From positions 1 to 52,271 of IMG/VR virus record IMGVR_UViG_3300035070_002934: DNA of 52,271 bases; one strand, 5' to 3'. This DNA is from a virus (Duplodnaviria; Caudoviricetes). A program made the translations under genes and the position numbers. Below the pieces are notes generated by a model. It was given only the letters and a program-made list of their open reading frames with translations, did no database searches and was not told where the DNA came from. Positions within the stretch are counted from its first letter, which is position 1. The number at the start of each line of letters is the position of its first letter. Of this stretch, positions 3,122 to 35,179 are shown in pieces.

Positions 3122-3213
3122 AAGACGATTAATACCCAGGCGGAAGAAAATGTTTTTGGTTGGGTCGAAACGCTGGATTTTATGGCGTAACATTTTAATG
3201 AGGAGCTGGCAAA

Positions 3214-3483: not shown

Positions 3484-3488
3484 TTTTT

Positions 3489-3738: not shown

Positions 3739-3750
3739 GGACAAGGACGA

Positions 3751-4719
3751 ATGGCAACAATACGCAAAAGAGGCAAATCATGGCGCGCCGAACTCTGCGT
3801 CAACACTGTGCGCGACTCTCGCACGTTTGACACCAAAAGCGAGGCGATGACATGGGCTGTGGCGAGGGAAGCTGAGCTGAAAGTCGTTGCGCCGGGTGAA
3901 GATGACCATTCAAAGCGCACCGGGCCGGATTTGTTTGGCCGTTATTTAAAAGAGGTAAGCTCAATAAAGCGCGGCGCGAAATGGGAAAAGATCAGGCTGT
4001 TGAAGTTTATGGATTACCACCACTTCAAACGGCCTTTACGCCAGATTACGCCAGATCATATTGCGCACTGGAAACAGGAGCGACTGAAATCTGTCTCACC
4101 GTCAACGGTACGGCGAGAAATGAATCTGTTAAGCCACTGCTTTGAGACTGCGCGCAAAGATTGGCGATGGCTATCTGATAACCCATGCACCGATGTTTCC
4201 AAGCCGCCAGACGGCAAAGCAAGGGATCGGCTGATCAGCAACGATGAAATTACACTCATCCGCCATGCGCTTGGCTGGCCGGTCGATGGAGTTGCAGCAA
4301 CAAAAATGCAGTCGGTCGCCGTCGGATTTATGTTTGCGATTGAAACCGGAATGCGAATGGGGGAAATCTGTGGGCTGACGCATGAGGACATTGTCGGCAG
4401 CGTCGCAACACTCCGGCAAACAAAAAATGGCACAGCCAGGCGCGTACCGCTGTCAAAAAGGGCGGTCGAGCTGCTGTCATTTGTACCTGACCTCTGGGAT
4501 ATGAAGCCGCACCAATTTGAAGCGCTCTTCAGAAAAGGGCGCGACAGATCTGGTGTGGTCGGATTGACCTTCCACGACACGAGGCATGAAGCAATCACGC
4601 GACTCGCCAAAAAACTGGACGTGCTGGAGCTGGCGCGAATGGTCGGGCACAAAAACATCAATCAATTATTGGTTTATTTTAACGCTAAAGCGGAGGATAT
4701 TGCAGACATGCTAGGCTAA
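3751..4719 (+). CDS. int: phage tyrosine integrase (Rci/HP1-like)
   Basis: TGMR, K, HDTRH, GH and Y catalytic motifs; N-terminal MATIRKRGKSWRAE arm-binding motif; likely start 3751 with AAGGA RBS. Confidence 0.92.
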   Translation: MATIRKRGKSWRAELCVNTVRDSRTFDTKSEAMTWAVAREAELKVVAPGEDDHSKRTGPDLFGRYLKEVSSIKRGAKWEKIRLLKFMDYHHFKRPLRQITPDHIAHWKQERLKSVSPSTVRREMNLLSHCFETARKDWRWLSDNPCTDVSKPPDGKARDRLISNDEITLIRHALGWPVDGVAATKMQSVAVGFMFAIETGMRMGEICGLTHEDIVGSVATLRQTKNGTARRVPLSKRAVELLSFVPDLWDMKPHQFEALFRKGRDRSGVVGLTFHDTRHEAITRLAKKLDVLELARMVGHKNINQLLVYFNAKAEDIADMLG

Positions 4720-5297
4720 ATATGCGTCCAGCATTTTCTATGCCTCACACTACTTATTGCTGCCGGAGATACACCAAACAGAAGGGCAAGTTCAACGCCC
4801 TTTTTATCGGACAACCTAATATAAATTACATCTTCTGCCTTTAGCTTTGATGAATAATGTTCGCTCCCTCTTTTTAATCTCTCTCTCTGCGTTCTTGATG
4901 GGTGCTCATCCCCTCTTTTAGAGCACTGAGAGCGATCATGAGCCCTGTTCTTCCTGATCATATCTTGGATATTTTCTTTTTGCGTACCTGCAAACAAGTG
5001 TGAAGGATTAAAGCAGCTAGGGTTGTCGCACGAATGGCACACATTCAACCCATCATCAATGCATCCATTAAGCATTTCAAATGAAAATCTATGCGCGTAG
5101 TGGTGTTTTGGCTTCCCATTTTCACATGAAACATATTGACCATACCCGGCGCTAGTCAAGCTTTTTGGCCAATTCCAACACCCATCAACCCCATCAAACT
5201 CCTTAGCAATAGAAACAAATCTACATTTCGGGGAGCAGTATGGCGCTTTTCTGGCGTTCCTTGATTCATATTCTTTTTCACATGTATGACACTTCAT
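4716..5297 (-). CDS. free-standing HNH endonuclease
   Basis: GCWNW..GYG..AHR..VCHSCDNPSCFNPSHL..N motif with N-terminal Zn finger and C-terminal HTH. Confidence 0.88.
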   Translation of the reverse strand: MKCHTCEKEYESRNARKAPYCSPKCRFVSIAKEFDGVDGCWNWPKSLTSAGYGQYVSCENGKPKHHYAHRFSFEMLNGCIDDGLNVCHSCDNPSCFNPSHLFAGTQKENIQDMIRKNRAHDRSQCSKRGDEHPSRTQRERLKRGSEHYSSKLKAEDVIYIRLSDKKGVELALLFGVSPAAISSVRHRKCWTHI

Positions 5298-5837: not shown

Positions 5838-6016
5838 TGAAAAAAATAATCACAGCGCTCTTAATCTTGGCGGCGAGCACCGCTTACGCTACCGGGTTCT
5901 TGTCTGGTGAGCGTACAAGCGGCATGAAAAAGATCTGTTATTACGACACACCTAGCGGCACTGTCGCAATAACAATCAAGGCGGTTGAGCTTTGCCCGTT
6001 GACGATTAAGGATTAA
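5837..6016 (+). CDS. small secreted protein (59 aa; not in the ORF track)
   Basis: MKKIITALLILAASTAYA signal-peptide-like N-terminus, two Cys; TGATG coupling with the upstream gene. Confidence 0.65.
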   Translation: MKKIITALLILAASTAYATGFLSGERTSGMKKICYYDTPSGTVAITIKAVELCPLTIKD

Positions 6017-18000: not shown

Positions 18001-19242
18001 AAGCAATTCGCCTTCCAATGGCGGCAACTCGGGCATAGTGTTTCTTGCTTCTGCCGGGTACGTTGCGTTTATTTCGTTTGGCACAATGGCAAGCGGGTTA
18101 TTCTGTACGGGTTGTACAGGCTCAAACGGTGGCGGCGTAAACTGCGGATTAGTCCTATCCATTGGGTGCCAGGCTTTTACCGCGCTCAATAATCCGCCTG
18201 CGCCTGCTGTAGCCTGGTCTAGTGAGTCACCACCATTTGCCCTGGTTTCTTCTTGGGCTTTTTGTATGTCGTCGATGGGGTTGGTTTCTGGCTTCTGTCT
18301 GAATGGTGCAGTAACTCCGGCAGACACACCACCCATTAATGCGCCAGCGGCGGCAGCATCGATAATTTCTTTCCAGTGCTCAGGCTGGAACATGCCCTGA
18401 TTATTATCTAGCCAATACTTCGCATGTTGTTCAACAATGGTTTGCAAACCTTCGGTAGAGCCTTCGGCCAGCATCTGCTTACCAACAAACTTCTTCACAC
18501 TTTCCGCTATCTGGTCGGTAGCTTCTCTGCCAACGCCTAATTTGTGAAGGATTCTCATCTGCGGTAAGGCATCTAACAGGCCAGCGACAGCACCATGAGC
18601 GAAGGCGTTGCCAGCCTTGTTCTCTCCTTCAATATCGGCTGTTTCGCCATAAATAGACCCCGTTTCCATCCCTGCGCTTGACCCATAAGCGCCAGCAAGA
18701 GCCCCCCTTGACGCCGCTTTAGCCAAGTGAGATGCGGCTGTTTTTTTGGCAATATCTAGTGAAACCCCTTTGGCAACCTCTGCGGCAATAATCTTCTCTG
18801 CGGCACTGGTTGCCAACTTCTTAGCGGCAATCGCACCAACGCCGCCAGACAACAAGCTAGCTGCAAGCATTGGCCCTTGCTCACCCGCGGTATATAACGC
18901 CCAATCAACCGCATCACCAAAGCCTTCGATGTCCGTAAAGCCTCGAACATTACCCGCATTTTCTTCGGCTTCCCTCATGTTGGCTTCGTAGCCTGAAAGC
19001 CCCCACTCCTTCAGTGACTCACTGCCAAGCGCATCACCGAAAGCGGAGACAAGGCCATAACTGATGCCTTGTAGGTGATCTACGCCAGCTTTAGCCCCCT
19101 TAGTTATCTGCCAAGATTCTTTTTTTGGTGCAGCTTGCGCTTCCTCTGGCGGCAAATAATCCGGGGCGCTCCCCACATCATACCAATCCTCATTTCTCTG
19201 TATGGTGTATTTGCTGATATCTTCAGGCTTAAAGAATGACAT
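6013..19242 (-). CDS. giant DarB-like polyvalent virion/ejection protein (ParB-like, N6-adenine MTase, SNF2/SF2 helicase, zincin-like peptidase, LPD38-like C-terminus)
   Basis: 4409 aa; GRHR, EPSVGSGNF and GNPPF, GAGKT/DEAH/TGTP/QREGR, HEGYGH motifs; last gene of the virion operon. Confidence 0.88.
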   Translation of the reverse strand: MSFFKPEDISKYTIQRNEDWYDVGSAPDYLPPEEAQAAPKKESWQITKGAKAGVDHLQGISYGLVSAFGDALGSESLKEWGLSGYEANMREAEENAGNVRGFTDIEGFGDAVDWALYTAGEQGPMLAASLLSGGVGAIAAKKLATSAAEKIIAAEVAKGVSLDIAKKTAASHLAKAASRGALAGAYGSSAGMETGSIYGETADIEGENKAGNAFAHGAVAGLLDALPQMRILHKLGVGREATDQIAESVKKFVGKQMLAEGSTEGLQTIVEQHAKYWLDNNQGMFQPEHWKEIIDAAAAGALMGGVSAGVTAPFRQKPETNPIDDIQKAQEETRANGGDSLDQATAGAGGLLSAVKAWHPMDRTNPQFTPPPFEPVQPVQNNPLAIVPNEINATYPAEARNTMPELPPLEGELLEKDPQLGIDRLRLDRPFIDGQQGDPELGGPDNWIGKEDKPLITRRNDRERLALPPPMEKAKVAKLDNESTDSGQSFDPKRKQARVNLDELTLSEDVPQFKSGASKDGVVEQLRGEYDEVGMAPIQVWVRKNGKKEILTGRHRFDLAKRSNQKDIPAQLHYEADGFTADHGKALDAILNIRDNQGSVKDYVEFFRSSGITEQESEKLGITSRQLGRRAYTIAKEGSDSLVTALRNDQITEAAAEAITRVAPKDEAYQAIGLKAIQDGKTQSVAVNMIRAAKTLKSKPDMTQEGDLFGFDDSAMKQAEAMAKAASSKQRQIKERIAAVKGAAKNPKLAKQEGVDVKDPESLKRRIAELTAEAERYEEWHKHPDLLREIQSEVSGQDFQLETQTEESLAQQEAEATKANQAEAEAKAQEEARIDADKEVDSFTLSGSDSAADIAMANGQTDIFADTPESKTESKGQQEDNSSTPFEMEARNEESKPKEPKVKPKPKPKSEKAYDPENSKISALLRANVEASSKKEIARDIAEITIKHGRRLTDSEISDLAAKHGTEERVIKEITNSPVGYDYIMMMSEIGNKHAIEFREAHRIRRAEGQKSESDQAKKPKDALQDAVIESDSPLYIEEISDKAILVKGDTRTHKDRIKAAGGKWHSRQQGWMFPKSRESSVRDKLADLLGKSDQATPKSDQAESQNTGLAEQMAAMSDDDLLALIDEVANESNPVDNTKPVKERKPSSKKEGGKRKLTPRKTKAEKLESAPSESDKERAAAEIAKSMGVNVSKAGMNAINGLAELFGGKGTLSSGLTFDEQTYEKAKPHFVSMLRDFQAAGKDLKDLIRAILDNFGVGVKPYIVRFAQDIRNGQLEESADDNQINTGNSEEQRGGSGEIREDGADGIGEGDKSPGSDGDGRNGSIDGIGSGESDSSERSNTNNPEAPGFSLENIEGIANGTDKQRVDANLAAIRLMKEIQSSGRYATTDEKNVLAKYVGWGGLSFVFDHTTKKKFAQEAHTELKALLTPTEYNNARSSTRTAFYTSKEIVKAMWQGVEAFGLGGSAMNVVEPSVGSGNFIGWQPSAMREKSKWSASELDTVTGNIAKLIYDDANIQVRGFQDTPFKSNVFSLAIGNPPFGSETITDERNPDISGLRIHNYMIAKSAKLLHEDGLMMMVVTHRFLDTLNENHRNLSSVVDFVGAVRLPNTAFKSNAGTEVTTDIVVFRKLKNGEKSSNTVWTDVNGNIDGIRINKYFESNPQNILGRLANDGTLRAGKEELTVHPTEEYGDIRSAVSIALKEMAKGYNLALTDEIKDSLAGEVLLSESSLPIGGMMLDADGKIQMRGDDTELGASIVEVTPSTPWTANGELLAELRDKLLNDETAFETAFRENLTNNGGALKSGYTSKPFKAIQAYSKREISKATLERELDSGIASSSLGDKYNKLKDLLAIRNTALSLIRAEKQDLGTIEQFRARLNKQYDAFAKTYGSKNKPASISASLNLLRDDISIESGLDSVDKKGNVKKHKIFSQRMMQPYKKPTKASDIHDAVNYSIREHGKVDIGYIAKLLGVSKLQARESLTKGNRPYLLKDPAIDELVFIDDYLSGNVKRKYHEAKDAGLVVNEKLLKSVLPKDKPVNKIKASVRASWMDAEVFEQFLQDVGIKAKVNVNRQLGTVRIATVNGSSNTEIGAQFKNDYKGIPELFEAAAAGKSLVIYTKDGNGNQVKHEEGTKQVNVLVNKMAQVFNTWASNNSSIMDRIAKNFNERVNTHIERKFNGRLYFTPVGQNPTIEMRKTQLDGALRMVQSKNVLLDHTVGAGKTFTSISGIMQRKRLGLSKKPMVVVPNHIIGAFTADFYELYPGANILTATEKQMKPAHRKQFFSRIATGDYDAVIIGHSHLRYLPNSLDSFAAVVNEKISELRAALEEAKSQAKESGRRGSSTKQIEDSISSMVDKIEKKKKAIESSHDAIGFDFSDLGVDYLVVDEAHEFKNLTYSTSSDRVVGMNDPKGSEKALDLLTKTRVVQGLDNGGVTFMTGTPISNSLVEVYTMMYYLGYDVLKDGSISHYDAFAGSFLNTETALEYTPTGSVKERVVLKGLSNMQELSVKYRQFADVITRADMVNIFAEDTAEKNEKNKTNDSTAFPIPKVKGGQRRLDLAPATETQREYNDYLIARMSAIEAIKGRQERKEYASIDNPLWVLSDARKASLDIRLVDPASRRDPTGKVARAAKNIKRIYDQWQNDKGAQLVFSDMGTPAKYAKGSVKKELKALASMAMSDAAATKLVNERIAFYDEDAYSKVLQDIVSRIEKAQQSGDIDASQEEALQDMISSLESSVLTADTGFSVYDDLKASLMEAGVPENEIAFIHDYDSVDKKKALFDQVNSGDVRVLIGSSAKMGAGTNAQKRLVALHHMDAPWRPSDMEQREGRIIRQGNDLYTRDPEGFEVEIVAYATQGSSDPVMWQILERKAAAIEQFRSGGLDEYVDDEGGDADSYAEFKASSTGNPIYKHKLQSDARLVEAQTDYYAASSSRSGAERVIENHDEYLARLYARKEAADKFSVTEFDMQSLDAAVSEQNKKFEKELSAFETAFESYEALSDEAKKGAKKPVRPIRPKIHAITHDYTKLLNERVVVPAMEAINAKVNSWSGSIALGENSSLEVDVSRNAFYSDKDKTVYDIEITYLHGRTPIYSYEKPAMATFIGSEDLLNKLNPLVAERAKSSVISETLQAIEAEKNAYAEAKKVVSKSAHKEKDRLEEERSFNDWLAVEVEVADAKEDQRRSTQANKYIERERKRNVKSSGKSKREDSIELMFEGETYKTLGMKVKNGNLFYDVYPSRNINSGEYVHVYAEKDKQANIEVKGVRHKPDGVELQDISFLESSTLFSINPKITAARKGAAITSAKANEIIDRITASWSKGRDNIVLVESFDDLPSAIKSQAKEYGAGRNEINGVFHEGKIYLVRENLMSALEVEEAIFHEGYGHYGIRKLLGENVGRELMRLFYAIGGARGFNEIAQKNGIDLKAYAEGLAKQPTEAKIQIMMDELLAHLAQSNKPGIKRAFKELIGKIRQFLRDRGFLKLADVDTNELLLVLKNARLAVEGKGPKNYSNNSEVIFNVGDGDERNTRTNSKASDKRLSENYVDYTDIPLMDVDDSGPMFSLRSAKTDEALNKFGLGAKRKAKLSEAINKVVAAENEKSLWSMFKHRAYEGMFDGLIGIDRAEKAVGVSGAENRGYIGARLATGIADVMHAILHYGAPKWKDGALQYKEGTQGLLDILGKAGKDLHSYLAWVGAHRAEELMAQGRENNLTQADIDDLKSRAKGKEALFKEIHREYKKLNKAMLDMAQESGLISAESRAKWESDWYIPFYREIEDEAGNVSLLAPRTSKGLSHQTSGIKQLKGGGQATNDLLENILANWMKLADASMKNSALVKTVDNLAGSDYLEEVAGENSVDFVGKKSDKNIIRIQRDGKPEYYKVNDPALLRAITHLSHPGFHDPVTKVGRYMKRLLTTGITSSPDFILRNFIRDAAHAWAINPDGFKLGVDSIKGLKDALREDPDYRELMFAGASFQGGYVHGTDPEASAQIIRRALEKKGLSPRALHAYESSLLDTPAKGLDAIKQGWQKYRELGDKVENANRLATYKAAKKSGKSILQAAFESKDLMDYSLRGNFAMMQYMIDLVPFMNARLQGMSKLVRAAHENPKRVLVEAGFKLALFSFALAMLNDDDERYQELPDWDKDANWHFWLGDDHYRLPKPFEIGIVFGTIPERLTHTLTGTQDAEKLLWSIKHNLWETMAINPTPQFAMPIIESVANRKFFFDQPIEGMSDEGKIESARYDENTSMTMRVLGEWTGYSPKKLEHLLNGYLGTMGMYALGIADMFADYATGRADKPEWKLEDLPVIKALYRGDTNKSTQYTTDVFDRWSEIDQVFRTINSFKKEGRTEEAEELRADNLEKLRYRRQLGKARNQLGDIRKQMDQLSRNRIITAEAKREKMDGLIEKRNAIAKKYAELTDEVF

Positions 19243-25379: not shown

Positions 25380-26944
25380 CTGATAATTCTCCTGAGAGAG
25401 TATTGAACAGTTACATCATGCACGGTGTAGGGGAGGGTGACTCCTTTACTGTAAACGTGAAGAGACATATTCTTTTCAGTGCCAGTAATGTCGATGATTG
25501 CCTCATCAACCGACTGAGCAGACCAGACGAATTCTCCCCACTTCGATACATCCCAAATACCACCACCACCGTTCATGTCAGCATCCACCTTGCGGTGAGT
25601 TGATATTTTTGTTGAGCCATAGCCAAATTCAGGCTTTACGGATATTGAAAATGAACCATCCGATGCCATCCCGAAAAGCGCCTGCCTAAATCGCTTCCTG
25701 AGCTCTGGTGATCCGTAGTGGTGGTAGGCCAGCTTGAAGTAAGCCTCGATTTCTTCACCATCAAAGCTGTCGCCAACTTCGAGCCGGTAAACAAATCCAT
25801 CCGTGGCGCCAACAAGAATCATTTCATTGCCATCACCATCTTCCGACGAGCATACGCAATTGGTTGTAAATGGGTAAATAAGCCTTCCGTAGCCCTGCAA
25901 TCCGTTTGATCCGAATGTCAGCGTAAGCACCTCGGTTCCGCTGTCGTGGTCGAAGAACAGCCAGTATTGGCTTTGAGAACGATTCAGGCATGACGCTACG
26001 GCGTGCGACTTGCGAAACAGGATGAACTCTTTGATCTGCTGATCAATCGTGCTCGAATTAAAGTTTCCGAAGGTCTGCGCCTGTTGAATGCTGGTCAGCC
26101 CTCTGTCGTCCAGATAGACAATATCATTGCCAATTGACTGCATTGTGAACGGGTATGCGCCGGACTCTTCCGATTGCTGTCTCAAATCGCTGCTTTGCCA
26201 GTCTGCTTGGCTTGATCCATAAAGCATACTCACCCGGTTACGCATGAAAATAGCTAACGCACCACCCACTGTAGATCGCAATCCAACAATGTCGTCGCCT
26301 GTTCCGCCCGCGCCCGCGCCTTCTGTGGTAGCATTCCATTTCTGTGGATCACCGATTCCTGAATGCACCCACTGGCCTTGCGGGTATGTCAAGAATAAGT
26401 GATTACTATGACATCGCAAGTGTTCCGGCTTGACCGTCTCGCCATCCACGCTCAGTTGCGTGAAGGTTGTTCCGTCAAACATGAACGCCTTGTTGACGCC
26501 ATCCACACCATACATCCGCTTTAAGGCTGAAGCCGCAAAGAAGTTGTAATTATCGAACTCATAACGCCCATCAGGATCAAGCGTTACGCCAGTGGTCACT
26601 TCCGACCATCCGGAGACTGTCGATTTGTACATCTTTGCCGAAGCGCCGCCAGTTGCGTTTCTGAATGCATAGACATTGCCATCAAAGATCCAGACACCAA
26701 GAACGCCATCCTCTCCCGGCACAGCTGTAATCGCCGCTCTTGCTGTTTCAGGATCTTCACTAGCATAGGGTGAAGCTTGACCATCGTAACGCTCATAGCC
26801 GCCAACCCTTGTGTAGCCGCCACCATTCTTTGCATGAAAGTTCTTGCAAGCAATCATGCCTCCCGGATTGATCTTTGTTGGATTGCTTTCCAAATCAAGA
26901 CCGCTTTCACAGGTGATTGTCTGGTGCCTTGGTCGCTGCATCAT
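25376..26944 (-). CDS. tail nozzle/stabilisation protein (podovirus tubular B-like)
   Basis: 522 aa, beta-rich; follows the adaptor gene. Confidence 0.65.
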   Translation of the reverse strand: MMQRPRHQTITCESGLDLESNPTKINPGGMIACKNFHAKNGGGYTRVGGYERYDGQASPYASEDPETARAAITAVPGEDGVLGVWIFDGNVYAFRNATGGASAKMYKSTVSGWSEVTTGVTLDPDGRYEFDNYNFFAASALKRMYGVDGVNKAFMFDGTTFTQLSVDGETVKPEHLRCHSNHLFLTYPQGQWVHSGIGDPQKWNATTEGAGAGGTGDDIVGLRSTVGGALAIFMRNRVSMLYGSSQADWQSSDLRQQSEESGAYPFTMQSIGNDIVYLDDRGLTSIQQAQTFGNFNSSTIDQQIKEFILFRKSHAVASCLNRSQSQYWLFFDHDSGTEVLTLTFGSNGLQGYGRLIYPFTTNCVCSSEDGDGNEMILVGATDGFVYRLEVGDSFDGEEIEAYFKLAYHHYGSPELRKRFRQALFGMASDGSFSISVKPEFGYGSTKISTHRKVDADMNGGGGIWDVSKWGEFVWSAQSVDEAIIDITGTEKNMSLHVYSKGVTLPYTVHDVTVQYSLRRIIR

Positions 26945-27591
26945 GACACCTCAATAATCATGTTTGGATTTGACCACGCATGATTATGCGCCATGGGTAG
27001 TTGCGATGATTCAAGCCTCGGCAATCGCTCCATGAGTCTGTCTTTTGCCCGCTGAAGCACCTCGTCGGCGGCCTCATAGTAGGCGTAGTTCACCAAGGCA
27101 TAGAGCCAGATCACATCATGATAGGTTTCTGGAATGCGCGGAATGTCGGCATTATCAGTCAGCTCTTGCGGAGACAGGTAATAATCGCCAGTAACCGTGT
27201 AAATGGCGTCCGGCGTTGGAACGAACATCAGGCTGTTGTTAGGCATAACAACAATCTGGGAAGGCTTTCCGCTCGATACTGCGCCAAAATCTGACCATTC
27301 AGCATAGTCGATACTTGGCACTACCTCGCCATCAATCTTGAATCTGGATCTATCCCAGCTTTCAAGGTCAGAAGGAGCTGTATTAATGCTCACTCCAATG
27401 GACGTAGTATCGCTCGACTGAGCAAAATTAAACTTCCAGTTTGCCCATAACGATTGAATATCAGAATTGGCTCGGCGTATCCACTCAACAAACCGCAGAT
27501 TCTCGCCTATCGCCCCGGTCACAGTGGTTAACGTGCTGCTTGACGCGCCGCTTTCTCTCGCCAGAGTCTGGCAAAGGGTTAGGAAGTTCAT
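26941..27591 (-). CDS. head-tail adaptor (tubular A-like)
   Basis: MNFLTLCQ.. N-terminus, 'PTPD', 'IPETYHDVI' motifs. Confidence 0.7.
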   Translation of the reverse strand: MNFLTLCQTLARESGASSSTLTTVTGAIGENLRFVEWIRRANSDIQSLWANWKFNFAQSSDTTSIGVSINTAPSDLESWDRSRFKIDGEVVPSIDYAEWSDFGAVSSGKPSQIVVMPNNSLMFVPTPDAIYTVTGDYYLSPQELTDNADIPRIPETYHDVIWLYALVNYAYYEAADEVLQRAKDRLMERLPRLESSQLPMAHNHAWSNPNMIIEVS

Positions 27592-27999: not shown

Positions 28000-28398
28000 T
28001 TAGAACCATTCAATAATAACGATCACAGACGCAATTCCGGCAGGTGTGCCGCCAGTGGGCGAGGTGAACTTCACCTGTACCAGCGAATCTGCCGCAATCG
28101 TGTCGCTTAGGATGAAGTTGGTAGCCGTTTCAGTTGCAGCACCCGCTGAAGCGGTGGCCGCCGCCGCCGTAACCAAACAATCCATCTGCGCATAGGCATC
28201 CGGATCAGCCACGGTCCCGACCTGAATTTTGCCGGTTAATGTGGTGTCGGTAAACGTTTCGGTGACATCAACCAGTAGAATGTCTTTTACTCGCCCTGTC
28301 ATTCCGGCCGGGCCGCGTATTTCATTGGTTGCTGCACCAGCGCCAAAATCATGCGCCGTCCATTTGTATGTGACTGGTAGTGTATTATCGTAAGCCAT
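28000..28398 (-). CDS. putative capsid decoration/cement protein
   Basis: Beta-rich Thr/Ala/Gly protein downstream of the MCP gene. Confidence 0.6.
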   Translation of the reverse strand: MAYDNTLPVTYKWTAHDFGAGAATNEIRGPAGMTGRVKDILLVDVTETFTDTTLTGKIQVGTVADPDAYAQMDCLVTAAAATASAGAATETATNFILSDTIAADSLVQVKFTSPTGGTPAGIASVIVIIEWF

Positions 28399-28407: not shown

Positions 28408-28548
28408 TTATGCTCTGTCGCTGCCTTTGGGCATCCGTTGGGATTTGTCGTGCGGCTTGTTCATATCCTTGACCTTGACTGTCTCTTTGGATTTCAAGCC
28501 TTCGCTGATTGCGCTTTCGTTGCCTTTTGCGCCTGATTTGTCTTGCAT
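28408..28548 (-). CDS. small basic protein (46 aa; MQDKSGAKG...)
   Basis: GGAG RBS; not in the ORF track in this frame. Confidence 0.45.
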   Translation of the reverse strand: MQDKSGAKGNESAISEGLKSKETVKVKDMNKPHDKSQRMPKGSDRA

Positions 28549-28568
28549 AATCTTTACTCCAAAATATC

Positions 28569-28591
28569 AAAACAAAGGGGGCAAAGCCCCC
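28569..28591 (-). terminator. intrinsic terminator after the MCP gene
   Basis: GGGGGC-TTT-GCCCCC then TTTGTTTT. Confidence 0.7.
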
Positions 28592-28597
28592 AATTGA

Positions 28598-28702
28598 TTA
28601 AGCTGCTGAATCCCACTTAATGATTCGTGAGTTCGCTGCAACGGTATGGCAGATGCCAAAGCCGCCTACATACATCCAGGCCATACCTCTTGACCTTCCA
28701 TA
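28598..28702 (-). CDS. major capsid protein exon 3
   Basis: YGRSRGMAWMYVGGFGICH...KWDSAA*; continues PGD from exon 2. Confidence 0.88.
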   Translation of the reverse strand, partial: YGRSRGMAWMYVGGFGICHTVAANSRIIKWDSAA

Positions 28703-29630
28703 CATACATTCGACGCCATTCGCTACTATGACGTCCGCCCCATAAACTCTTGATACCCTTTCCCGCGCTTCATATCCTTTACGGTATCAACAGGAACACC
28801 TACCAATCTCGCTATCTCAACGGAGTTCAACTTACCGTCTTGCAGCAATCTCGCAACCTTATACGCCTCTTCATCGCTCATTTTGCGCTTAGGGCTTGGC
28901 TGATTCTTCCTGGCGTATCCCGCCTTTATCCTGCTGACATGAGAAGGCGAGAGGCCTGTTAGCTCGCTAACCTTTCTGCCAGTCCTGCCTTCATCAAGAA
29001 GGTGCTTAACTTCTCTAATCTGCTCGTCAGAATATTTGCTAAGGTTACTCTCTGTTCCTGAGAAACCTCTATTCTTGTCGAAGCAGTCTTTGATGTTGTC
29101 GCTTTGAGACCCAAGGAATAAGTGGTCTGGATTAAAGCACTTAGGGTTGTCGCAGTGATGGCAAACAAAGACATCATCAGGTATCAGCTCACCCTTGAAT
29201 GCGGTGTAAGCTGCTCGATGAGCCATAATCTTTTTGCCCTCAAACACGCCGGGTATTCTAAATGATCCATACCCAATGGTTGTGGACCCTTGCCACTCCC
29301 AACAACCTTTTTTGCTTATCTCCATCTTTGTTACTAAGAGTTTTAGGACTGCCTCACGTTTCCATGAGGATTGGACTATATCTTCACCCAATCTATTAAA
29401 TTGGGGCTGGGCGCTTCCATCCTGCTTAGGATGTACTCTACTAACTGCACTTGTTGATTGTGCGTTTTCGATAGTCTCTGAACGTTCCCCTTTCGGGGCT
29501 TCGCTGCTGATTGTCATCTTATAATACCTCTCAATACCTCGATTGAGTCCATATTATACATTAGAGTTCCAGCAATTCACCCAGTTTTTAGCATTAGATC
29601 ACTCTAATGGGAGACCACAGTATAGGTCGA
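28703..29630 (-). ncRNA. group I intron 2 of the MCP gene (928 nt)
   Basis: 5' exon ends in U, intron ends in G; P1 GGAGAU/GUCUCC; P 29569-29577, Q 29504-29512, R 29472-29482, S 29374-29384. Confidence 0.9.
28726..29517 (-). CDS. intron-encoded HNH homing endonuclease
   Basis: GCWEW..GYG..AHR..VCHHCDNPKCFNPDHL motif plus two HTH-like repeats. Confidence 0.88.
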   Translation of the reverse strand: MTISSEAPKGERSETIENAQSTSAVSRVHPKQDGSAQPQFNRLGEDIVQSSWKREAVLKLLVTKMEISKKGCWEWQGSTTIGYGSFRIPGVFEGKKIMAHRAAYTAFKGELIPDDVFVCHHCDNPKCFNPDHLFLGSQSDNIKDCFDKNRGFSGTESNLSKYSDEQIREVKHLLDEGRTGRKVSELTGLSPSHVSRIKAGYARKNQPSPKRKMSDEEAYKVARLLQDGKLNSVEIARLVGVPVDTVKDMKRGKGYQEFMGRTS

Positions 29631-30200
29631 ATCTCCAGGTAACTTAGCTCTGATCTGCTCTGGCTCGACAATCGCCTCCGCCACGGTGTCAGCGCCGAAG
29701 AAGAAGGCCGCATCAGACTTAGCGTTATTCCAGGCTTCATAGGCGATATTGGTCTGCGTGAAGAAACGAATTCCCTCATAACGACCGATTTCACCCGCTG
29801 CAATCCGACTAAAACCAGATTCGATATAGAAACTGATAGCTTCCAGATCGTCCTTAAAGGCGCGGAAGGTTGACGGACGCGCCAATGCACAGTAGTTCTC
29901 ACCGTCATAAGGCGTGATATTGCGCTCTGCCATCGCATCAGCGATTAACTTCACATGCTCTTTTCGCAATGCTACGTTGTTGGTGACACCGCCTGCCGTG
30001 CCATCAGTATTAATAGCACTGATCGTGGTGGCAGAATCACCCGTACCGCCTGCGGTCACTGTCAACTTGGTTTTGTTGAACTCAGTGTAAGCCGCGGCGT
30101 CCAGCGTTTTACAAGCATCATTCTTCAACACCTTGTCAATCACACGCTCGCAAGAGTGCTTAGATAGGATATCGACCTTGCGAGTGTAGGGAACAGAGTT
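29631..30200 (-). CDS. major capsid protein exon 2
   Basis: NSVPYT...GEIGRYEGIRF...RAKLPGD, N4-gp56-like. Confidence 0.9.
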
Positions 30201-31226
30201 CATTGTGTTATCGCGGCTTTTTTAATTGCACCGCTTCTGCATGTTTCCATGCAGTTCAGACTATATCTTCGCTTTCGCGTCCCGCACTCTTGGAGCTATA
30301 CCGTCCACTTGGGACTCCATGCTCTAGTCGTTGAACCTTCAGCCTATTGCTAGGTAGCTTGGCTGCTGATTGCCCAATCCAAACAATTTTCAAACATTCA
30401 CGCCTGCCGTTACCAGCTACGTTGTAGTTTATTTGGCTCTAAGGGTGTCCCAGCAATTCACGGGATTTTCTACAATTCCATGTTTCGTGTATAATGTTCC
30501 GATATACGAAATGGAGGCCATAATGGGTGTATCAAAAAAGCAACAAGAACGAGTTAGCCAGATCTGCAAGTGTGGATGCAATCAACAATTCATGGCTTTC
30601 CCAGCGTACCGCCCCAAATCAGAGGGTGGAGGGCTGCGAGTGCCTGAATATAAACGAGGGCATCACCCAACAAGCAAAGCAAAGTTAAGCAAAGACGTGC
30701 CGTGGAATAAGGGTCTAACCAAGAATGATCACCCATCCATTGCGAAAATGGGGTTTCAGCCTGGCCATGAACCATACAGCGACTGGTCTAAGGTTAACGA
30801 TAAGCTAGCAAATGATCCTAAAATTAGAGAAAGATGGCTTAAAGCAAAAAAAGGTCAGATCCCTTGGAACTCTGGGCTGACCAAAGACCAATATGCCACC
30901 GACTTTCCTGTTGGTGAAGATCACGGCAACTGGAAGGGTGGTCACCGGGGCGTGGTTGATACCGCCGCCTGGAAATCGCTTAGACTCAGCATTCAGCGAA
31001 GAGACAAATTTACCTGTCAAGAATGCGGAGATAAAAACTACAAAGGGCGCGGTTCACGCATCAGGCTTGAAGTTCATCATATTCAAGCTTTGTGTGATCG
31101 ACCAGATCTTGCGTTGGAGCCATCCAACTTAATTCTTCTTTGTCACTCCTGTCATGTAAAAACACACAATTATGGCACTAAGGCTTGGCAAAATAAGTCT
31201 TAGTGAACTGTAGCGGCAACTAATTT
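30201..31226 (-). ncRNA. group I intron 1 of the MCP gene (1026 nt)
   Basis: Exon ends GGU, intron ends in G; P1 CGGU/GCCG; P 30449-30458, Q 30363-30371, R 30325-30335, S 30259-30269. Confidence 0.9.
30523..31203 (+). CDS. HNH endonuclease inside intron 1, antisense to the host gene
   Basis: GGAGG RBS at 30513-30517; CKCGC, two PWN.GLTK repeats, RDKFTCQECG..LEVHH..NLILLCHSCH. Confidence 0.85.
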   Translation: MGVSKKQQERVSQICKCGCNQQFMAFPAYRPKSEGGGLRVPEYKRGHHPTSKAKLSKDVPWNKGLTKNDHPSIAKMGFQPGHEPYSDWSKVNDKLANDPKIRERWLKAKKGQIPWNSGLTKDQYATDFPVGEDHGNWKGGHRGVVDTAAWKSLRLSIQRRDKFTCQECGDKNYKGRGSRIRLEVHHIQALCDRPDLALEPSNLILLCHSCHVKTHNYGTKAWQNKS

Positions 31227-31499
31227 ACCGTACTCAGTAATCGTCATACTTTCTTGGGTGATAGTGAAATTGGTTTCAGGCATTGCGTCTGTTTCGGGGA
31301 GCGCTGCGCCTTGGGTTGCTACATCGCTGTAGACGTTCCAAGAGAAGGTGTCACCTGTGCCTTTGTCTTTCGCATCTTCCACATCGCAGAAGTTACGGAA
31401 ACGGGTCAGGGGTTGAAGTTTGGTACGGAGAGTGTCGGACAATTGGTCCGAGTACATGAATCCGCCCAGGGTATCGGTAGTCCATAATTGGCCTGCCAT
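31227..31499 (-). CDS. major capsid protein exon 1 (N4-gp56-like; spliced product 315 aa)
   Basis: MAGQLW...ITEYG joins NSVPY in frame; AGGAG RBS. Confidence 0.9.
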
Positions 31500-31520
31500 A
31501 GTGTATTACTCCTAAATTAT

Positions 31521-32516
31521 TTATAGTGTCGCTGCGCCACGCGCTGCCCTGATATCGTTCAGAACATCGTTGCGTGACTTTGGTTTGGGTGCTGGATTAC
31601 CTGCGCGTCTTGCACTGTTGCCGCTCATACCGCCACTGGCTTTCTGCTTGCGCTGCACACGAGTGTCGTTACTTTTCATGCCATACCAGTCGCGAGTTCG
31701 CTTGCCCGCTTCCGTCACCACTTCTTTGGGTGATAGGTTCGGGTTTTCTTGCATGATCTCGATGGTAAATTTGTCGGCCACATCGTAAAGAATCTTGTCT
31801 TTCGCAATGTCGGCAAACTCGGTAGAAAAGAACTGTTGTGCGTCCCGTAGCTCTGCCTGGCGTTTTTCTGCGGCGTTACGTTGCTCAATCGTTCGGTAAA
31901 TGTTGTCTGCTAATTTCGACTCATCGAGGGTAGGCATCTGCCGCCCTTGGTTTTGAATCTCTATCAGTAGCTCGTCTGCGCGATCATCGTTGCCGTCCAG
32001 CAAGGCTTCGTGATACTCCCGCGCTTTTTGCTTGAGTTCGTCAGAACCCATTTTCTTGCCAACGTCCTGGGCGGATGGTTGACCTTTTGCGGCTTTCGCC
32101 TCAAATTCTCGTAGTTGCGCCTCTCTTAATTCCGCCTCTTGCATTCGGCGTGAGGCTTCCTGTAGCCGTAAATCTGCGGCTTCAGACTTCTGGGCAATAG
32201 CAATGACTTGCTCCATTGTCATTTCGCGCTCTTGCCCATTGACCTTCAGCTTGACGGTTTTCGGGGCTTTGTCGGTAACGCCTTCGTCGTCGTCACCGTC
32301 TAGCACTTCCTCTTCGTCATCATCATGGTCGCCGTTATATTCGCGCTCTGCTTCTGCCAAATCTTCATTGAGTCGTTCGGCTTGCTCTGCAAGGATTGCT
32401 AACGAATCATCTTCGTCCTGCTCTTTGTCTTCTTTTCTGGACGCCGATATTGCGTTGATCTTTGCTAGTCGATCACTGCCGAAACCAGAAACGTCCTCAT
32501 GGATAGCTTCACTCAT
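31521..32516 (-). CDS. capsid scaffolding protein
   Basis: Acidic/coiled-coil, KLKVNGQERE motif; directly upstream of MCP. Confidence 0.75.
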   Translation of the reverse strand: MSEAIHEDVSGFGSDRLAKINAISASRKEDKEQDEDDSLAILAEQAERLNEDLAEAEREYNGDHDDDEEEVLDGDDDEGVTDKAPKTVKLKVNGQEREMTMEQVIAIAQKSEAADLRLQEASRRMQEAELREAQLREFEAKAAKGQPSAQDVGKKMGSDELKQKAREYHEALLDGNDDRADELLIEIQNQGRQMPTLDESKLADNIYRTIEQRNAAEKRQAELRDAQQFFSTEFADIAKDKILYDVADKFTIEIMQENPNLSPKEVVTEAGKRTRDWYGMKSNDTRVQRKQKASGGMSGNSARRAGNPAPKPKSRNDVLNDIRAARGAATL

Positions 32517-32839: not shown

Positions 32840-33126
32840 TATCGACCCTCCTCGGCATCCATCTCACGAAGTTTGAATTCTGCTTCTTCTCCAGCGTTGA
32901 TGGCTTCTATTATCCAGTTGATCGCATCTCTTGCCCGTTGCGCATCTTTCTGGTGTGTCACCATGGATGAATTCAGGAAAGCCTCAAAGCACTGCTCAAT
33001 ATCCTGTACCGCGCACCCGACAAGATATTTGCCAACGCGAGAATTGAGAAAATTTTGCGCCTCGGTGCCAAGGTCGAACTGGGCAAAAAGGAACTTCTCG
33101 GTATCGTAGAGGTTAGAATGTATCAT
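32839..33126 (-). CDS. hypothetical head-region protein
   Basis: Overlaps the portal 3' end. Confidence 0.65.
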   Translation of the reverse strand: MIHSNLYDTEKFLFAQFDLGTEAQNFLNSRVGKYLVGCAVQDIEQCFEAFLNSSMVTHQKDAQRARDAINWIIEAINAGEEAEFKLREMDAEEGR

Positions 33127-35179
33127 GACCCTGCCTCAAGTTGGTTGCCTGCAACGCCTGCTGTGCCTGCTGAAGCGTCAGCCTTGTGCCTTCAATTTGC
33201 CGTTGTGTGGCAAGCTTCTGTTCTTCCATGCCCAGCTTCTTGTAGAGCTCTTCCAGCTTCATGTTCTGCGTTGCAGCAATCTTCGCCATTTCGATTTCTT
33301 GGCGCATCTGCAACTCCGCTTGTTTGTACTGCATTTCAAACTGCAATCGTTGCTGGTCTATCTGCACCTTAGCCATTGCTACTGGATCTACTGGCGGCTG
33401 TGGTGGCTGCGCATTCTCATCGATCGGCTTAAAGAATCGCTGACCGTCCCGGTAGCCGGACTTGCCGAATACCTCTTTGGCAATCTCATCACCATCCAGT
33501 CTCTCAGCCATACCCGGAAGCATAGCCACGCTTTGGATGGCGTAGTTCAGCCTTTCCAGCTTCTGTTGCGGGTTAGTGTTGCCAAAGCCCACATTGACGT
33601 TAACGGTTAACTGCGCACGCAATAGCTCATCTGTCACCTGATCCACGCCAAACTTCTGATAAAGCTCTGCCCTGTCTGCGGCAATGCCAAGTATTTTATG
33701 GTCAGTCTCGTAATGCTGCTCCATTCGCACCAGTTGACGAATAACGGGCTCCATCCAGGTTTCAATAAACACCCGGAAGGAATACTCGGACATTGAATCC
33801 GCGCCCTGACTCATCAGGTTCATGCCGCCCACGGTTTCATTCAGGTTTCGGTTGTTTTGTACCGACTGCTGACTGAATGCCCCGGTGATTTCATCGATCT
33901 GTAAATCAAGTCTATCCTGCTCTTGGTAGCTAGATCCGGTGATATCCGGCGTATCCACCACGCGCACATCACCAACAGGGTCGTTCACCATAACAGTGCC
34001 GCCGGGGACGTTACGCGCCAGTGATTGCAGATCAGCACCGGTAGCCCCTCGACGGATAAAGTAACGCTTGTTCAGCACCAGCTTGACGTTATCAAAGCGC
34101 TGGTTAGCAATGTCGTTAGCATCTGTTTGTAAATGCTCAATCAATGCCGTGGGCGATTTCGGGTAATTCTTGTGGGCTTCTAATACGCAATAGCCCAACA
34201 CGACCGGGCGCTCACCAAACTCCAGGTGGGGATACATTTCTTGTACTGGCACCGGATCAGAAAGTAAGTGCTTAGTGCCTAGCGTCCAATAAACGTAATC
34301 GTCACCGTCCGGCAGTCGAATATAGTTCTCATGTAACCAGATCAACTCAAATTCATTGTGCCGGGCTTCTGATTCACTGGGATCGATGCGCCCTTTGCCT
34401 TCCCGATTCTTTCTGGTGCTGTCGTCCTGCGCTTCACTGGCGGAGGTGCAATAAGTGCCTAACGAGTATTCACGCCAGCCTCTTGCCTCTGCCTTGGCTT
34501 TCGCCTCGCCTGCGTACATTGGGACCAGACGCACCATGTAAGGTGAGGTGTTAATAGGGTCGCGCCAATCTGCGGAAGGCTCAAACCGGATATTCTCAGG
34601 CGGCAATAGATCGATAGTCGGCTCATCCTTGCGCACCTGGTCGCCAATAGCGTCATACTCCCATGCCTGGTACGAGGCGCACACCCCATAGACTCGGGCA
34701 TCTTGAAACGCACCCATAACAGTGAGAAACCACGGAATGGTATGCGTTAACCGATACTGCAATAACTGCTGGTTAATGTCGGCACTCGCCGCCTGCATCT
34801 CGTCATTGTCATTAATGGCTGTAATGGACACCAGATCATTGGTTGCAAACACCGCTCTGGCGAATTGTGCTTCGGCGTTGAGGTTGTTCGCCCTTGTCTT
34901 TGGCCTGAATGTCTTGGATCTCGCCCGGTATGCGTCCGTATGGTACTTGCTGCCGGGGGCATGCTCTCCATTCTGGTGAGCAATAGCCGTTTCCCAATCC
35001 TTGCGAATATTTGAATCAAGGTAGTCGGTAGAGGAATCATACGCATCTCGCGCCATCGACAACCAATAATCATCATCATATTCTGGTTCTTTATCTGTGC
35101 CGAAATCAGATTGCAGTTCGTCAAGTTCAGACTGGTAGCGCTCTTGCAATCCATCCAGCGTAGTAATGTCGTCCATCAT
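33113..35179 (-). CDS. portal protein
   Basis: 688 aa after TerL; NETVGGMNL motif and Q-rich coiled C-terminus as in P22/N4-like portals. Confidence 0.85.
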   Translation of the reverse strand: MMDDITTLDGLQERYQSELDELQSDFGTDKEPEYDDDYWLSMARDAYDSSTDYLDSNIRKDWETAIAHQNGEHAPGSKYHTDAYRARSKTFRPKTRANNLNAEAQFARAVFATNDLVSITAINDNDEMQAASADINQQLLQYRLTHTIPWFLTVMGAFQDARVYGVCASYQAWEYDAIGDQVRKDEPTIDLLPPENIRFEPSADWRDPINTSPYMVRLVPMYAGEAKAKAEARGWREYSLGTYCTSASEAQDDSTRKNREGKGRIDPSESEARHNEFELIWLHENYIRLPDGDDYVYWTLGTKHLLSDPVPVQEMYPHLEFGERPVVLGYCVLEAHKNYPKSPTALIEHLQTDANDIANQRFDNVKLVLNKRYFIRRGATGADLQSLARNVPGGTVMVNDPVGDVRVVDTPDITGSSYQEQDRLDLQIDEITGAFSQQSVQNNRNLNETVGGMNLMSQGADSMSEYSFRVFIETWMEPVIRQLVRMEQHYETDHKILGIAADRAELYQKFGVDQVTDELLRAQLTVNVNVGFGNTNPQQKLERLNYAIQSVAMLPGMAERLDGDEIAKEVFGKSGYRDGQRFFKPIDENAQPPQPPVDPVAMAKVQIDQQRLQFEMQYKQAELQMRQEIEMAKIAATQNMKLEELYKKLGMEEQKLATQRQIEGTRLTLQQAQQALQATNLRQGHDTF

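Follow-up and report, generated by a model that had tools for sequence, protein, structure and literature searches.

How can a phage make its major capsid protein if the gene encoding it is broken into three pieces separated by about a kilobase each? The question arises from a metagenomic phage contig (86% complete; the whole 52,271-base stretch analyzed is referred to here as the window), in which the capsid coding sequence is split over three exons (Table 1). The answer that we regard as very probable is that two mobile group I introns have settled in the 315-aa HK97-fold capsid gene of a lambdoid-type temperate phage and are spliced out in frame.

Table 1. Features of the interrupted capsid gene and its two introns (positions in the window)
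Feature	Position	Strand	Remarks
Capsid exon 1	31499-31227	minus	91 aa, MAGQLW...ITEYG; 96% identity to P0001 residues 1-91
Intron 1, group I	31226-30201	minus	1026 nt; after U31227, ends with G30201
Intron 1 P1	31230-31214	minus	CGGUAA (31230-31225) with UUGCCG (31219-31214), U31227-G31217; ORF-masked MFE
Intron 1 P2	31213-30470	minus	9-bp helix, CUACAGUUC (31213-31205) with GAAUUGUAG (30478-30470); 726-nt loop
HNH endonuclease gene	30508-31203	plus, opposite to capsid gene	Wholly in P2 loop of intron 1; PF01844, 36.4 bits (cutoff, 21.4)
Intron 1 P3-P9 core	30465-30237	minus	Within RF00028 match 30543-30237
Capsid exon 2	30200-29631	minus	190 aa, NSVPY...KLPGD; 94% identity to P0001
Intron 2, group I	29630-28703	minus	928 nt; after U29631, ends with G28703
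Intron 2 P1	29636-29631 with 29615-29610	minus	GGAGAU with GUCUCC, U29631-G29615; by eye
Intron 2 ribozyme P1-P9	29633-29352	minus	RF00028, 100.1 bits
HNH_3 + helix-turn-helix endonuclease gene	29517-28726	minus, sense	PF13392, 42.7 bits (cutoff, 24.8), plus HTH domains
Capsid exon 3	28702-28601, stop 28600-28598	minus	34 aa, YGRSRG...KWDSAA; 97% identity to P0001
Terminator-like GC hairpin + T run	28577-28591	minus	7 nt 3′ of capsid stop codon

Joined, the exons (91 + 190 + 34 aa) give a protein of 315 aa, as does the uninterrupted homologue P0001, and the exon coordinates and in-frame join of the original prediction all hold. The prediction had also named an alignment with intronless major capsid proteins as a check. 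In that comparison, with homologues of 310 to 315 aa, the exons are colinear to the codon and abut exactly at ITEYG/NSVPY and LPGD/YGRSRG, with neither gap nor overlap (8/8 aligned homologues). Relative to the intact homologue, they contain no frameshift or stop codon. If read without splicing, the exon 1 frame continues for 8 further codons into intron 1 before a stop at 31202-31200, and that of exon 2 for 8 codons into intron 2 before a stop at 29606-29604.

The exon translations alone found no family match in Pfam, PHROG, or NCBIfam, and a sequence-profile search of the capsid protein against PDB gave no matches. P0001 itself scored below the cutoffs for PF25209 (26.0 versus 27) and TIGR04387 (37.5 versus 60), while another homologue, P0006, scored above that for PF25209 (33.2 versus 27). 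A structure model of P0001 (94 to 97% identical to the exons) has an HK97-like fold (pLDDT 79.4, pTM 0.80), and Foldseek returned at least 364 PDB matches for it at E ≤ 0.001; among the matches listed, all are capsid-shell structures, nearly all from tailed phages, including NF5 (E = 3.8e-12), N4, HK97, and SU10. The gene order is portal, coiled acidic protein, capsid gene, and then an SU10-type adaptor. By the modeled fold, the interrupted gene is a predicted HK97-fold major capsid gene of the N4-gp56-like / Phage_capsid_4 type, and fold and neighborhood both agree with its earlier designation as a major capsid gene. The phage had also been called temperate, in keeping with the integrase and the Q-like, NinB, RusA, and O/P-like replication genes in the window.

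Two matches to the Rfam group I model RF00028 were found in the window, both inside the capsid introns and on the minus strand. The scores of 100.1 bits for intron 2 (29633-29352; E = 8.3e-25) and 75.1 bits for intron 1 (30543-30237; E = 2.4e-17), compared with a gathering score of 50 bits, confirm by covariance model that there are two group I introns. Both alignments span model positions 1 to 253, and the P, Q, R, and S segments claimed for the two introns are visible in each; the same blocks are invariant in an alignment of six ribozymes. Core helices P3 to P9 were recovered for both introns by minimum free energy (MFE) folding with the ORFs masked, as the unmasked insert of intron 1 pairs with the core in silico. 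In an unconstrained MFE fold of the full intron 1 RNA the core misfolds against the insert, which counts against the proposed structure. A duplex search on intron 1 was uninformative for the same reason, the insert pairing with the core. Extra hairpins lie between P7 and P3′ in both introns (29463-29447 and 29433-29418 in intron 2; 30324-30293, enclosing 30315-30303, in intron 1), and by these P7.1/P7.2-type hairpins both may be IA-like.

At the splice sites, both introns follow a U and end in a G, as had been described. The P1 helix with its U-G pair was also borne out, with different kinds of support for the two introns: U31227-G31217 comes from the ORF-masked MFE fold and U29631-G29615 from inspection by eye only. 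For intron 2, neither the constrained MFE fold nor the Rfam alignment returned this P1; the fold instead paired 29618-29611 with 29478-29471 and 29632-29626 with 28714-28708, and the Rfam P1 columns hold nonstandard pairs. Counting against intron 1, its P1 has six pairs only and an antisense gene occupies its 726-nt loop. A candidate P10 in intron 1 (by eye) would pair AGUU (31221-31218) with the first bases of exon 2, AACU (30200-30197). From ribozyme family membership, exon colinearity, and the homologous introns and intron-free alleles described below, we infer that both introns are spliced. In the late transcript, two guanosine-initiated self-splicing reactions would ligate 31227 with 30200 and 29631 with 28702, re-establishing the frame, and the stop eight codons into each intron would halt ribosomes on unspliced RNA.

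In intron 1, the RF00028 match begins 683 nt past the 5′ splice site. The gap corresponds to a 732-nt insert (31212-30481), and the P1/P2 columns of the Rfam alignment, at 30543-30480, are misplaced, falling inside the P2 loop. L039, a related locus, has at this site an ORF-less intron that matches intron 1 at 25/26 nt at the 5′ end and is 70% identical over 311 nt but lacks these 732 nt, having 4 nt there instead. Position 30543 was considered as a separate 5′ splice site or the mark of an additional exon and was rejected: the exon 1 frame ends at 31200, the homologues leave no residues to be accounted for, and comparison with the L039 intron indicates a simple P2 insert. The HNH gene within the insert could start at ATG 30508 (231 aa) or at ATG 30520 after a GGAGG (227 aa; Shine-Dalgarno recognized by eye), and in a PHROG search both this product and the intron 2 endonuclease match HNH families. 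No close relative of the antisense HNH protein was found (2 loci, the best with 39% identity over 61 aa), its sequence-profile search against PDB gave 0 matches, and a promoter scan of the region returned 2 sites versus 4.4 expected, neither placed for this gene. Positions 30476-31203 have nearly no cover in four sequencing runs, which says nothing either way. Intron 1 would thus have been an ORF-less resident of site 91 that later gained an antisense HNH gene in its P2 loop.

The intron 2 endonuclease lies on the sense strand, with its HNH_3/HTH coding sequence after P9. Its homologous domain extends from ATG 29325 (199 aa), and the frame is open from ATG 29517 (263 aa), just before the Q element, so that it overlaps P4′ to P9. 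The same ATG, Shine-Dalgarno sequence, and open frame are found in 3/3 homologues, and the frame would seem to have its start within the core of the ribozyme. As it overlaps the core, translation and ribozyme folding should exclude each other on any one RNA molecule. A search of the protein against PDB profiles returned only a "CAP REPEAT" chain on the HTH part, which is uninformative. Both intron endonuclease genes are intact and score above the Pfam cutoffs. Their activity, target, and regulation are presumed: each would cut the intron-free alleles of co-infecting relatives, into which the intron would then be copied. The opposite-strand HNH gene of intron 1, the core-overlapping frame of intron 2, and the other intron sites in relatives go beyond the original prediction.

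An alternative that we consider improbable is that at least one of the introns has decayed and now splices poorly; the capsid gene would then be a pseudogene, and the contig would derive from a defective or cryptic prophage. Among the sequencing runs listed for the sequence none is on record as RNA, the large antisense insert of intron 1 misfolds readily in silico, the antisense HNH protein has no close relative among the loci found, and the contig is incomplete. Against this, the cores exceed the gathering score by 25 to 50 bits and lack none of the core helices, the exons, free of frameshifts and stops, retain 94 to 97% identity to an intact homologue, neither endonuclease gene is disrupted, and the P1 guides still match their own exons. 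Furthermore, phage LittleE is described as splicing a capsid intron that carries a bottom-strand HNH gene (PMC3706429).

Relatives of the phage bear on whether the introns belong to the gene. Group I introns occupy five capsid-gene sites in these relatives, up to three per gene (about 48, 80, 91/92, 281/282, and 291 in P0001 numbering), and the five sites are concentrated in the two blocks where the capsid sequence is most conserved. Introns homologous to those of the window were found at site 281 in L038 (68 bits) and at sites 91 (77.8 bits) and 281 (86.5 bits) in L039, in capsid genes that are only 45 to 54% identical. At site 281, P1 covaries between the window (GGAGAU/GUCUCC) and L038 (GACGAU/GUCGUC) with two compensatory pairs, and at site 291 the helix reads CGUGGU/GCCACG in L006 and CUUGGU/GCCAAG in L039, all by eye; counting against this pattern, P1 of L039 at site 281 has 4 pairs only, also by eye. 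These comparisons suggest that the P1 guide sequence changes to fit each site. The relatives were found by P0001 peptide patterns spanning sites 91 and 291, a search that under-samples alleles split at these sites, and "5 of 17" is therefore not a frequency. Metagenome contigs identical to IMG/VR loci were counted once (L022 = L003, L024 = L004, L025 = L008, L029 = L010, and L034 = L018).

Empty alleles were found as well. L021 is a syntenic, intron-free allele with ~85% DNA identity, and among contigs of four runs (X1, X5, X6, and X7) the exon 1-exon 2 joint was present in 3/4 and the exon 2-exon 3 joint in 1/4. The runs consist of contigs that are probably DNA (X7 is labeled "probably DNA"), and because of this the joints represent intron-free DNA alleles, not splicing. 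Intron 2 was present in 2/4 runs, contiguous with exons in X5 record 9 and X1 records 2 and 3. The same sites are thus polymorphic for intron presence, empty in L021 and at the contig joints versus occupied in L038 and L039.

These data also bear on the possibility, which we regard as very remote, that the assembly of the metagenome stitched intron-like sequence from other phages into a capsid gene. The source is indeed a metagenome-derived viral contig, and the ribozyme core recurs in hundreds of phage records (partial matches to the query in 449), repeats of a kind that can confuse assemblers. However, independent contigs hold intron 2 together with exons 2 and 3 and with the same junctions (X5 record 9, 28608-29766), L038 and L039 have homologous introns at identical codon boundaries, and perfect in-frame junctions, U/G boundaries, and matching guides argue for genuine introns. 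Equally remote is a split at the protein level, with three polypeptides building the capsid and the endonuclease cassettes kept in the RNA: the ORFs containing exons 1 and 2 do have possible start codons (for exon 2, ORF 29604-30203 starts with ATG one codon ahead of it), but exon 3 codes for 34 aa only, both split points interrupt conserved strands (E88-95; 278-298 region) in what is a single-domain fold, and the RNA between the exons constitutes a complete group I ribozyme, splice-site pairings included. The data are explained without any split form.

Across intron copies in the capsid family, the endonuclease may be encoded in sense, in antisense, overlapping the core, as a LAGLIDADG-like ORF, or as a free-standing gene downstream. 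The LAGLIDADG-like label, given to a 252-aa ORF in the first interruption of L018, rests on motifs recognized by eye, and the ORF matched no Pfam family. In Vibrio phage 1.232.O, a GenBank isolate with the same capsid family, a truncated capsid gene is annotated beside an unannotated intron, an actual case of the gene fragmentation by annotation pipelines that had been anticipated. It is conceivable, though we hold this only tentatively, that the capsid family (N4-gp56-like, aquatic phages) is a previously unreported group I intron hot-spot, with each guide retuned to its own site. If so, introns would spread from site to site within one gene and act as weapons between co-infecting related temperate phages, and late transcription of the capsid gene, running toward the antisense HNH gene of intron 1, would either silence that gene or suffer interference from it.

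Capsid introns of this kind have been described before in other phages, and the two reported here add to their number. The td, nrdB, and sunY introns of T4 reside in nucleotide-metabolism genes of virulent phages and carry sense-strand GIY-YIG or other endonucleases; they are IA-type introns that resemble those of the window in their group I core, endonuclease genes, and presence/absence polymorphism and differ in interrupting metabolism genes of virulent phages as opposed to the capsid gene of a temperate one. For structural genes, the view that double splicing is unusual was overstated, given the precedents in the available accounts of LittleE (PMC3706429), Tuc2009, and crAss-like phages (PMC7886860). 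LittleE, a temperate mycobacteriophage, has one 819-bp group I-type capsid intron with a bottom-strand HNH gene (Pope et al. 2013, PMC3706429), and its splicing was shown by RT-PCR and N-terminal sequencing (PMC3706429). The likeness extends to the temperate lifestyle, HK97-type capsid, U before the 5′ splice site, G at the intron 3′ end, and colinear intronless relatives, whereas the window has two introns instead of the one described, both strong RF00028 matches, with another capsid family and intron sequence and with splicing that is predicted. Tuc2009, a temperate lactococcal phage, is cited as having one group I intron in its major head protein gene (via PMC3706429 and PMC2504315), likewise a temperate phage with a head-protein intron but with a single intron and a Gram-positive host.

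The crAss-like phages come closer in intron number, with a capsid gene in five fragments and three group I introns (Yutin et al. 2021, PMC7886860), and share the fragmentation by endonuclease-bearing introns, metagenomic discovery, and complicated annotation (PMC7886860). As described there, they are large, virulent-type phages of Bacteroidota whose introns (as many as 14) and inteins are spread over the whole genome (PMC7886860), whereas the window is lambdoid-type temperate and ~52 kb, with Rfam group I introns only in the capsid gene (2/2). Other multi-intron phage late genes on record are Twort orf142 (three introns), the JCL1032 late genes, and, with several group I introns in one structural gene, the tape-measure genes of Bacillus cereus-group prophages (PMC2504315); the host genes and phage groups differ from ours, and in such late genes, as in the relatives of the window, related introns are described as fitting their P1 guides to different sites. 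General features listed for group I introns (Hausner et al. 2014, PMC3984707) include an early in-frame stop and an endonuclease ORF that either occupies a peripheral loop or extends into the core, features common to the T4 introns and those of the window.

As delivered by gene callers, this capsid gene is a set of pieces without a family match. Genes of this kind would therefore be overlooked, or given a wrong size, in capsid-based classification and marker-gene surveys. For the phage itself, virion production would require two ribozymes to act on the late transcript with the heaviest expression. The related phages, with zero to three introns at five sites, constitute a natural series in which intron movement and guide adaptation may be followed and in which it may be asked whether the result of a mixed infection is determined by intron endonucleases, a role reported for a jumbo-phage intron endonuclease (PMC11620839).

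The capsid gene had been predicted to be split by two group I introns, and a scan of the whole window with RF00028, the Rfam model for group I introns (gathering score 50), bore this out, returning exactly two matches, both on the minus strand and both within the proposed introns (see the table). The base preceding each intron is U (31227 and 29631) and the last intron base is G (30201 and 28703), as the original prediction had it, and the U-G pair that it placed in each P1 was also found, in the masked fold of intron 1 (U31227-G31217) and by reading the sequence of intron 2 (U29631-G29615). The constrained MFE fold of intron 2 did not recover the P1 helix and instead placed 29618-29611 opposite the P7 strand and 29632-29626 opposite 28714-28708, close to the 3′ end; this is a weakness of the reading. 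The latter two segments form a 7-bp perfect complementarity (AUUCGAC/GUCGAAU), the second lying 6 to 12 nt before the 3′ splice site, and their pairing, as drawn in the masked MFE fold, joins both intron ends in competition with P1. In each intron, the capsid frame reaches a stop codon eight codons past the 5′ splice site, a feature linked by Hausner et al. (PMC3984707) to ribosome stalling that lets the ribozyme fold. The one basis for a subgroup call, hairpins between P7 and P3′ in the MFE fold, suggests that the introns may be IA-like. Overall, the introns are real and their structure was correctly read.

A search with exon 2 as the only query found 2573 proteins at E <= 0.001 among 2681 candidates; of the 120 homologues listed, most are 310 to 317 aa long, and the best match, P0001 (315 aa and intronless), is 94% identical. 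Aligned with eight homologues, the three exon translations are colinear with the intronless capsid proteins and abut in frame at ITEYG|NSVPY and LPGD|YGRSRG with neither gap nor overlap, with identities to P0001 of 96%, 94%, and 97% for exons 1 to 3. On their own, the exon pieces match no Pfam, PHROG, or NCBIfam family, and an annotation pipeline would therefore lose or fragment the gene, as had been anticipated. The complete three-exon gene encodes the major capsid protein. Source records label full-length homologues "phage major capsid protein" or "N4-gp56 family major capsid protein," and another homologue, P0006, passes PF25209 (33.2 against a cut-off of 27), P0001 itself falling narrowly under the cut-offs (26.0 versus 27 for PF25209; 37.5 versus 60 for TIGR04387). 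An AlphaFold2 model of P0001 (36-sequence alignment; pLDDT 79.4, pTM 0.80) gave at least 364 Foldseek matches in the PDB at E <= 0.001, those listed being capsid-shell structures, nearly throughout of tailed phages (NF5 [3.8e-12], GP4, N4, HK97, and SU10). The gene also occupies the expected capsid location, 3′ of the portal gene and of a coiled acidic 331-aa protein and 5′ of the adaptor, with a terminator-like hairpin 7 nt past its stop codon. The flanking minus-strand genes, 28003-28398 (132 aa) and 31521-32516 (the 331-aa protein), have no family match in Pfam, PHROGs, or NCBIfam; judged by position, the former may encode a decoration or head protein and the latter a scaffold.

The record is linear and complete as an IMG/VR record (52,271 bases; CheckV completeness, 86%), with late genes running in the minus-strand direction. 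Its integrase, Q-like antiterminator, RusA, NinB, O/P-like replication, and Rha/Ant-type genes make the label "temperate" a reasonable one. A single 4409-aa ORF (6013-19242, minus strand) spans a quarter of the genome and is a "large polyvalent protein," with Pfam domains LPD38 (E 4.3e-45), SNF2-related helicase, Eco57I-type methylase, and ResIII/Helicase_C.

Features of the window and of related capsid loci (L numbers, loci of relatives; sites in P0001 codon numbering; guide pairings taken by eye)
Feature	Position	Strand	Evidence or sequence
Integrase	3667-4716 (gene span also given to 4719)	+	PHROG, E 1.6e-52
Q-like antiterminator, RusA, NinB	window		PHROG
P-like helicase loader, O-like initiator	window		PHROG
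Rha/Ant-type regulator	window		PHROG
Small and large terminase	window		PHROG
Tail proteins	window		PHROG
Portal	33116-35179		PHROG
SU10-type adaptor	26944-27591		PHROG; Pfam PF24175
Capsid exon 1	31499-31227	-	91 aa
Capsid exon 2	30200-29631	-	190 aa
Capsid exon 3	28702-28601	-	34 aa
Intron 1 ribozyme match	30543-30237	-	RF00028 75.1 bits, E 2.4e-17
Intron 1 P1	CGGUAA 31230-31225 with UUGCCG 31219-31214	-	masked fold; U31227-G31217 wobble
Intron 1 P2, 9 bp	31213-31205 with 30478-30470	-	masked fold; encloses antisense gene
Intron 1 P3	30465-30460 with 30285-30280	-	masked fold
Intron 1 hairpins	between P7 and P3′	-	masked fold
Intron 1 P8; P9; one more 3′ hairpin	P9, 30254-30237	-	masked fold
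HNH endonuclease gene, intron 1	30508/30520-31203	+ (opposite to capsid)	PF01844 36.4 bits, cut-off 21.4
Intron 2 ribozyme	29633-29352	-	RF00028 100.1 bits, E 8.3e-25
Intron 2 P1	GGAGAU 29636-29631 with GUCUCC 29615-29610	-	read from sequence; U29631-G29615
HNH_3 + helix-turn-helix endonuclease gene, intron 2	after P9	- (sense)	PF13392 42.7 bits, cut-off 24.8
L006, L007, L008 intron	~codon 291		RF00028 + tblastn
L017 intron	~codon 48		RF00028 + tblastn
L018 intron	~codon 291		RF00028 + tblastn
L038, one intron	site 281/282		RF00028 68 bits
L039 first intron	site 91/92		RF00028 77.8 bits
L039 second intron, with HNH	site 281/282		RF00028 86.5 bits
L039 third intron	site 291		RF00028 66.1 bits
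Exon/guide, L017	site 48		GGCGAU/GUCGCC
Exon/guide, L018	site 80		CACGGU/GCCGUG
Exon/guide, window and L039	site 91		CGGU/GCCG
Exon/guide, window	site 281		GGAGAU/GUCUCC
Exon/guide, L038	site 281		GACGAU/GUCGUC
Exon/guide, L006 and L020 (Vibrio phage 1.232.O)	site 291		CGUGGU/GCCACG
Exon/guide, L018	site 291		CGUGGU/GCCAUG
Exon/guide, L039	site 291		CUUGGU/GCCAAG

Intron-free alleles of the gene exist. The contig encoding P0001 is syntenic with the window, ~85% identical in DNA over exons 1 and 2, and carries neither intron; its junction bases are G and C versus the required U in the window. When contigs from four public sequencing runs were aligned to window positions 28500-31600, exons 1 and 2 were directly joined in three runs (X1, X5, and X7), with twelve divergent letters between the two sides, and exons 2 and 3 in one (X5). 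Intron 2 was in place in X5 record 9 (28608-29766, 28 differences) and in X1 records 2 and 3. Since all four contig sets are of the DNA type, these joints represent intron presence/absence polymorphism, not splicing.

Intron 1 (31226-30201, 1026 nt) has its RF00028 match starting 683 nt downstream of the 5′ splice site, the gap being occupied by the plus-strand HNH gene, which was masked for MFE folding. A candidate P10, identified by eye, would pair AGUU (31221-31218), the four bases 5′ of the guide, with AACU at the start of exon 2. The viral contig L039, whose capsid gene is ~52% identical to that of the window, has an ORF-less group I intron at the identical codon boundary, matching intron 1 at 25 of the first 26 nt and at 70% of 311 nt of the core, with only 4 nt in place of the window's 732 nt at 31212-30481. 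This comparison is decisive: intron 1 is a resident intron of the site into whose P2 an endonuclease cassette has been added in antisense orientation. The Rfam alignment simply misplaces its first ~60 columns (30543-30480) within the P2 loop. No close relative of the antisense HNH protein was found in IMG/VR, where the search gave two loci with a top identity of 39% across 61 residues. Its TAG stop (31201-31203, plus strand) overlaps the TAA (31200-31202, minus strand) that ends the read-through of exon 1.

Intron 2 (29630-28703, 928 nt) begins with 279 nt of ribozyme, and its endonuclease gene stops 23 nt short of the 3′ splice site. Homology of the endonuclease starts at ATG 29325, with the frame already open from ATG 29517, immediately before the Q element. 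The endonucleases of L038 and L039 (58% and 49% identical, respectively) have an ATG at the equivalent place, preceded by a purine-rich Shine-Dalgarno-like run and followed by ~66 open codons, a stretch in which the other two frames have 2 to 7 stops. Given this core-overlapping open frame with an ATG in all three copies, we think that the endonuclease is translated from within the ribozyme core (P4′ through P9), an overlap described in general terms by Hausner et al. (PMC3984707). Translation and ribozyme folding would then exclude each other on one molecule. Another HNH_3-type endonuclease, a free-standing paralogue 33% identical to this one across 150 aa (E 4e-23), is encoded at 4716-5297 on the minus strand, adjoining the integrase gene (3667-4719, plus strand) and outside any Rfam intron match.

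An IMG/VR pattern search with P0001 identified 17 loci, five of them with an RF00028 match at gathering; the search peptides span two of the intron sites, and these counts are not frequencies. L038 and L039 were added by searching with the intron 2 endonuclease, and exons were mapped by tblastn in P0001 numbering. In L018 the gene is interrupted a second time, within codon 80 (L018 2102-3000), with a weak group I match (27.8 bits, E 7.2e-5) and a 252-aa sense ORF which overlaps the 3′ half of the ribozyme, shows LAGLIDADG-like motifs by eye, and matches no Pfam family. L039 has three RF00028 matches in one capsid gene (1056-3563), which thus consists of four exons, the third of just ~10 codons. 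Among isolated phages, 32 records have a 52 to 57% identical homologue, every one a single tblastn piece. One of these, Vibrio phage 1.232.O (MG592596; gene region L020 2018-3816), has an ORF-less, unannotated intron (RF00028, 83.1 bits, L020 2870-3140) directly past the W290 codon, and a last exon of 24 to 29 codons 300 nt further on (L020 3195-3281); its deposited capsid CDS is truncated, and the annotated "HNH nuclease" is free-standing and downstream.

All five sites lie in the two stretches where the family is best conserved, TEYGNSVPY and PxDYGRSRGxAW (invariant alignment columns), the sort of target expected for homing endonucleases. Across the six aligned ribozymes, the P, Q, R, and S blocks do not vary, and P9 is shared. 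In pairings taken by eye from the junction sequences, with no tool score, the guide of each intron matches the exon just upstream of that intron, the junction pair being U-G. At site 281, L038 and the window differ by two compensatory changes, and the L039 pairing is just 4 bp. Such guide and exon changes are covariation of a kind expected only if P1 is used. This capsid gene has been invaded repeatedly among relatives.

Pope et al. (2013, PMC3706429) report a spliced capsid gene in the temperate mycobacteriophage LittleE, by RT-PCR and N-terminal sequencing, and cite a capsid-gene intron in Tuc2009, which Tourasse and Kolsto (PMC2504315) also give among their intron matches as "Tuc2009 (major head protein)." For the window, we infer splicing, along with endonuclease activity, target sites, and expression timing. 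Tourasse and Kolsto further describe related introns in prophage tape-measure genes that retune P1 for different sites. According to Yutin et al. (2021, PMC7886860), Delta-group crAss-like phages "typically" carry group I introns in core genes, the capsid gene included, and three group I introns occur in a Zeta-group capsid gene that is broken into five fragments; jumbo gut phages are described with ~18 per genome, some backed by metatranscriptome reads (PMC12880540). With these precedents and those of Hausner et al., every element is already known in print: capsid gene, temperate phage, several introns, antisense HNH, and core-overlapping ORF. In searches of the main text of freely available full-text articles, we found no description of introns in this capsid family or of the five-site pattern, which is weak evidence of absence. 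What the case chiefly adds is a comparative series, with five sites and zero to three introns per gene, which also holds ORF-less and ORF-bearing versions of one intron and guides that track their sites.
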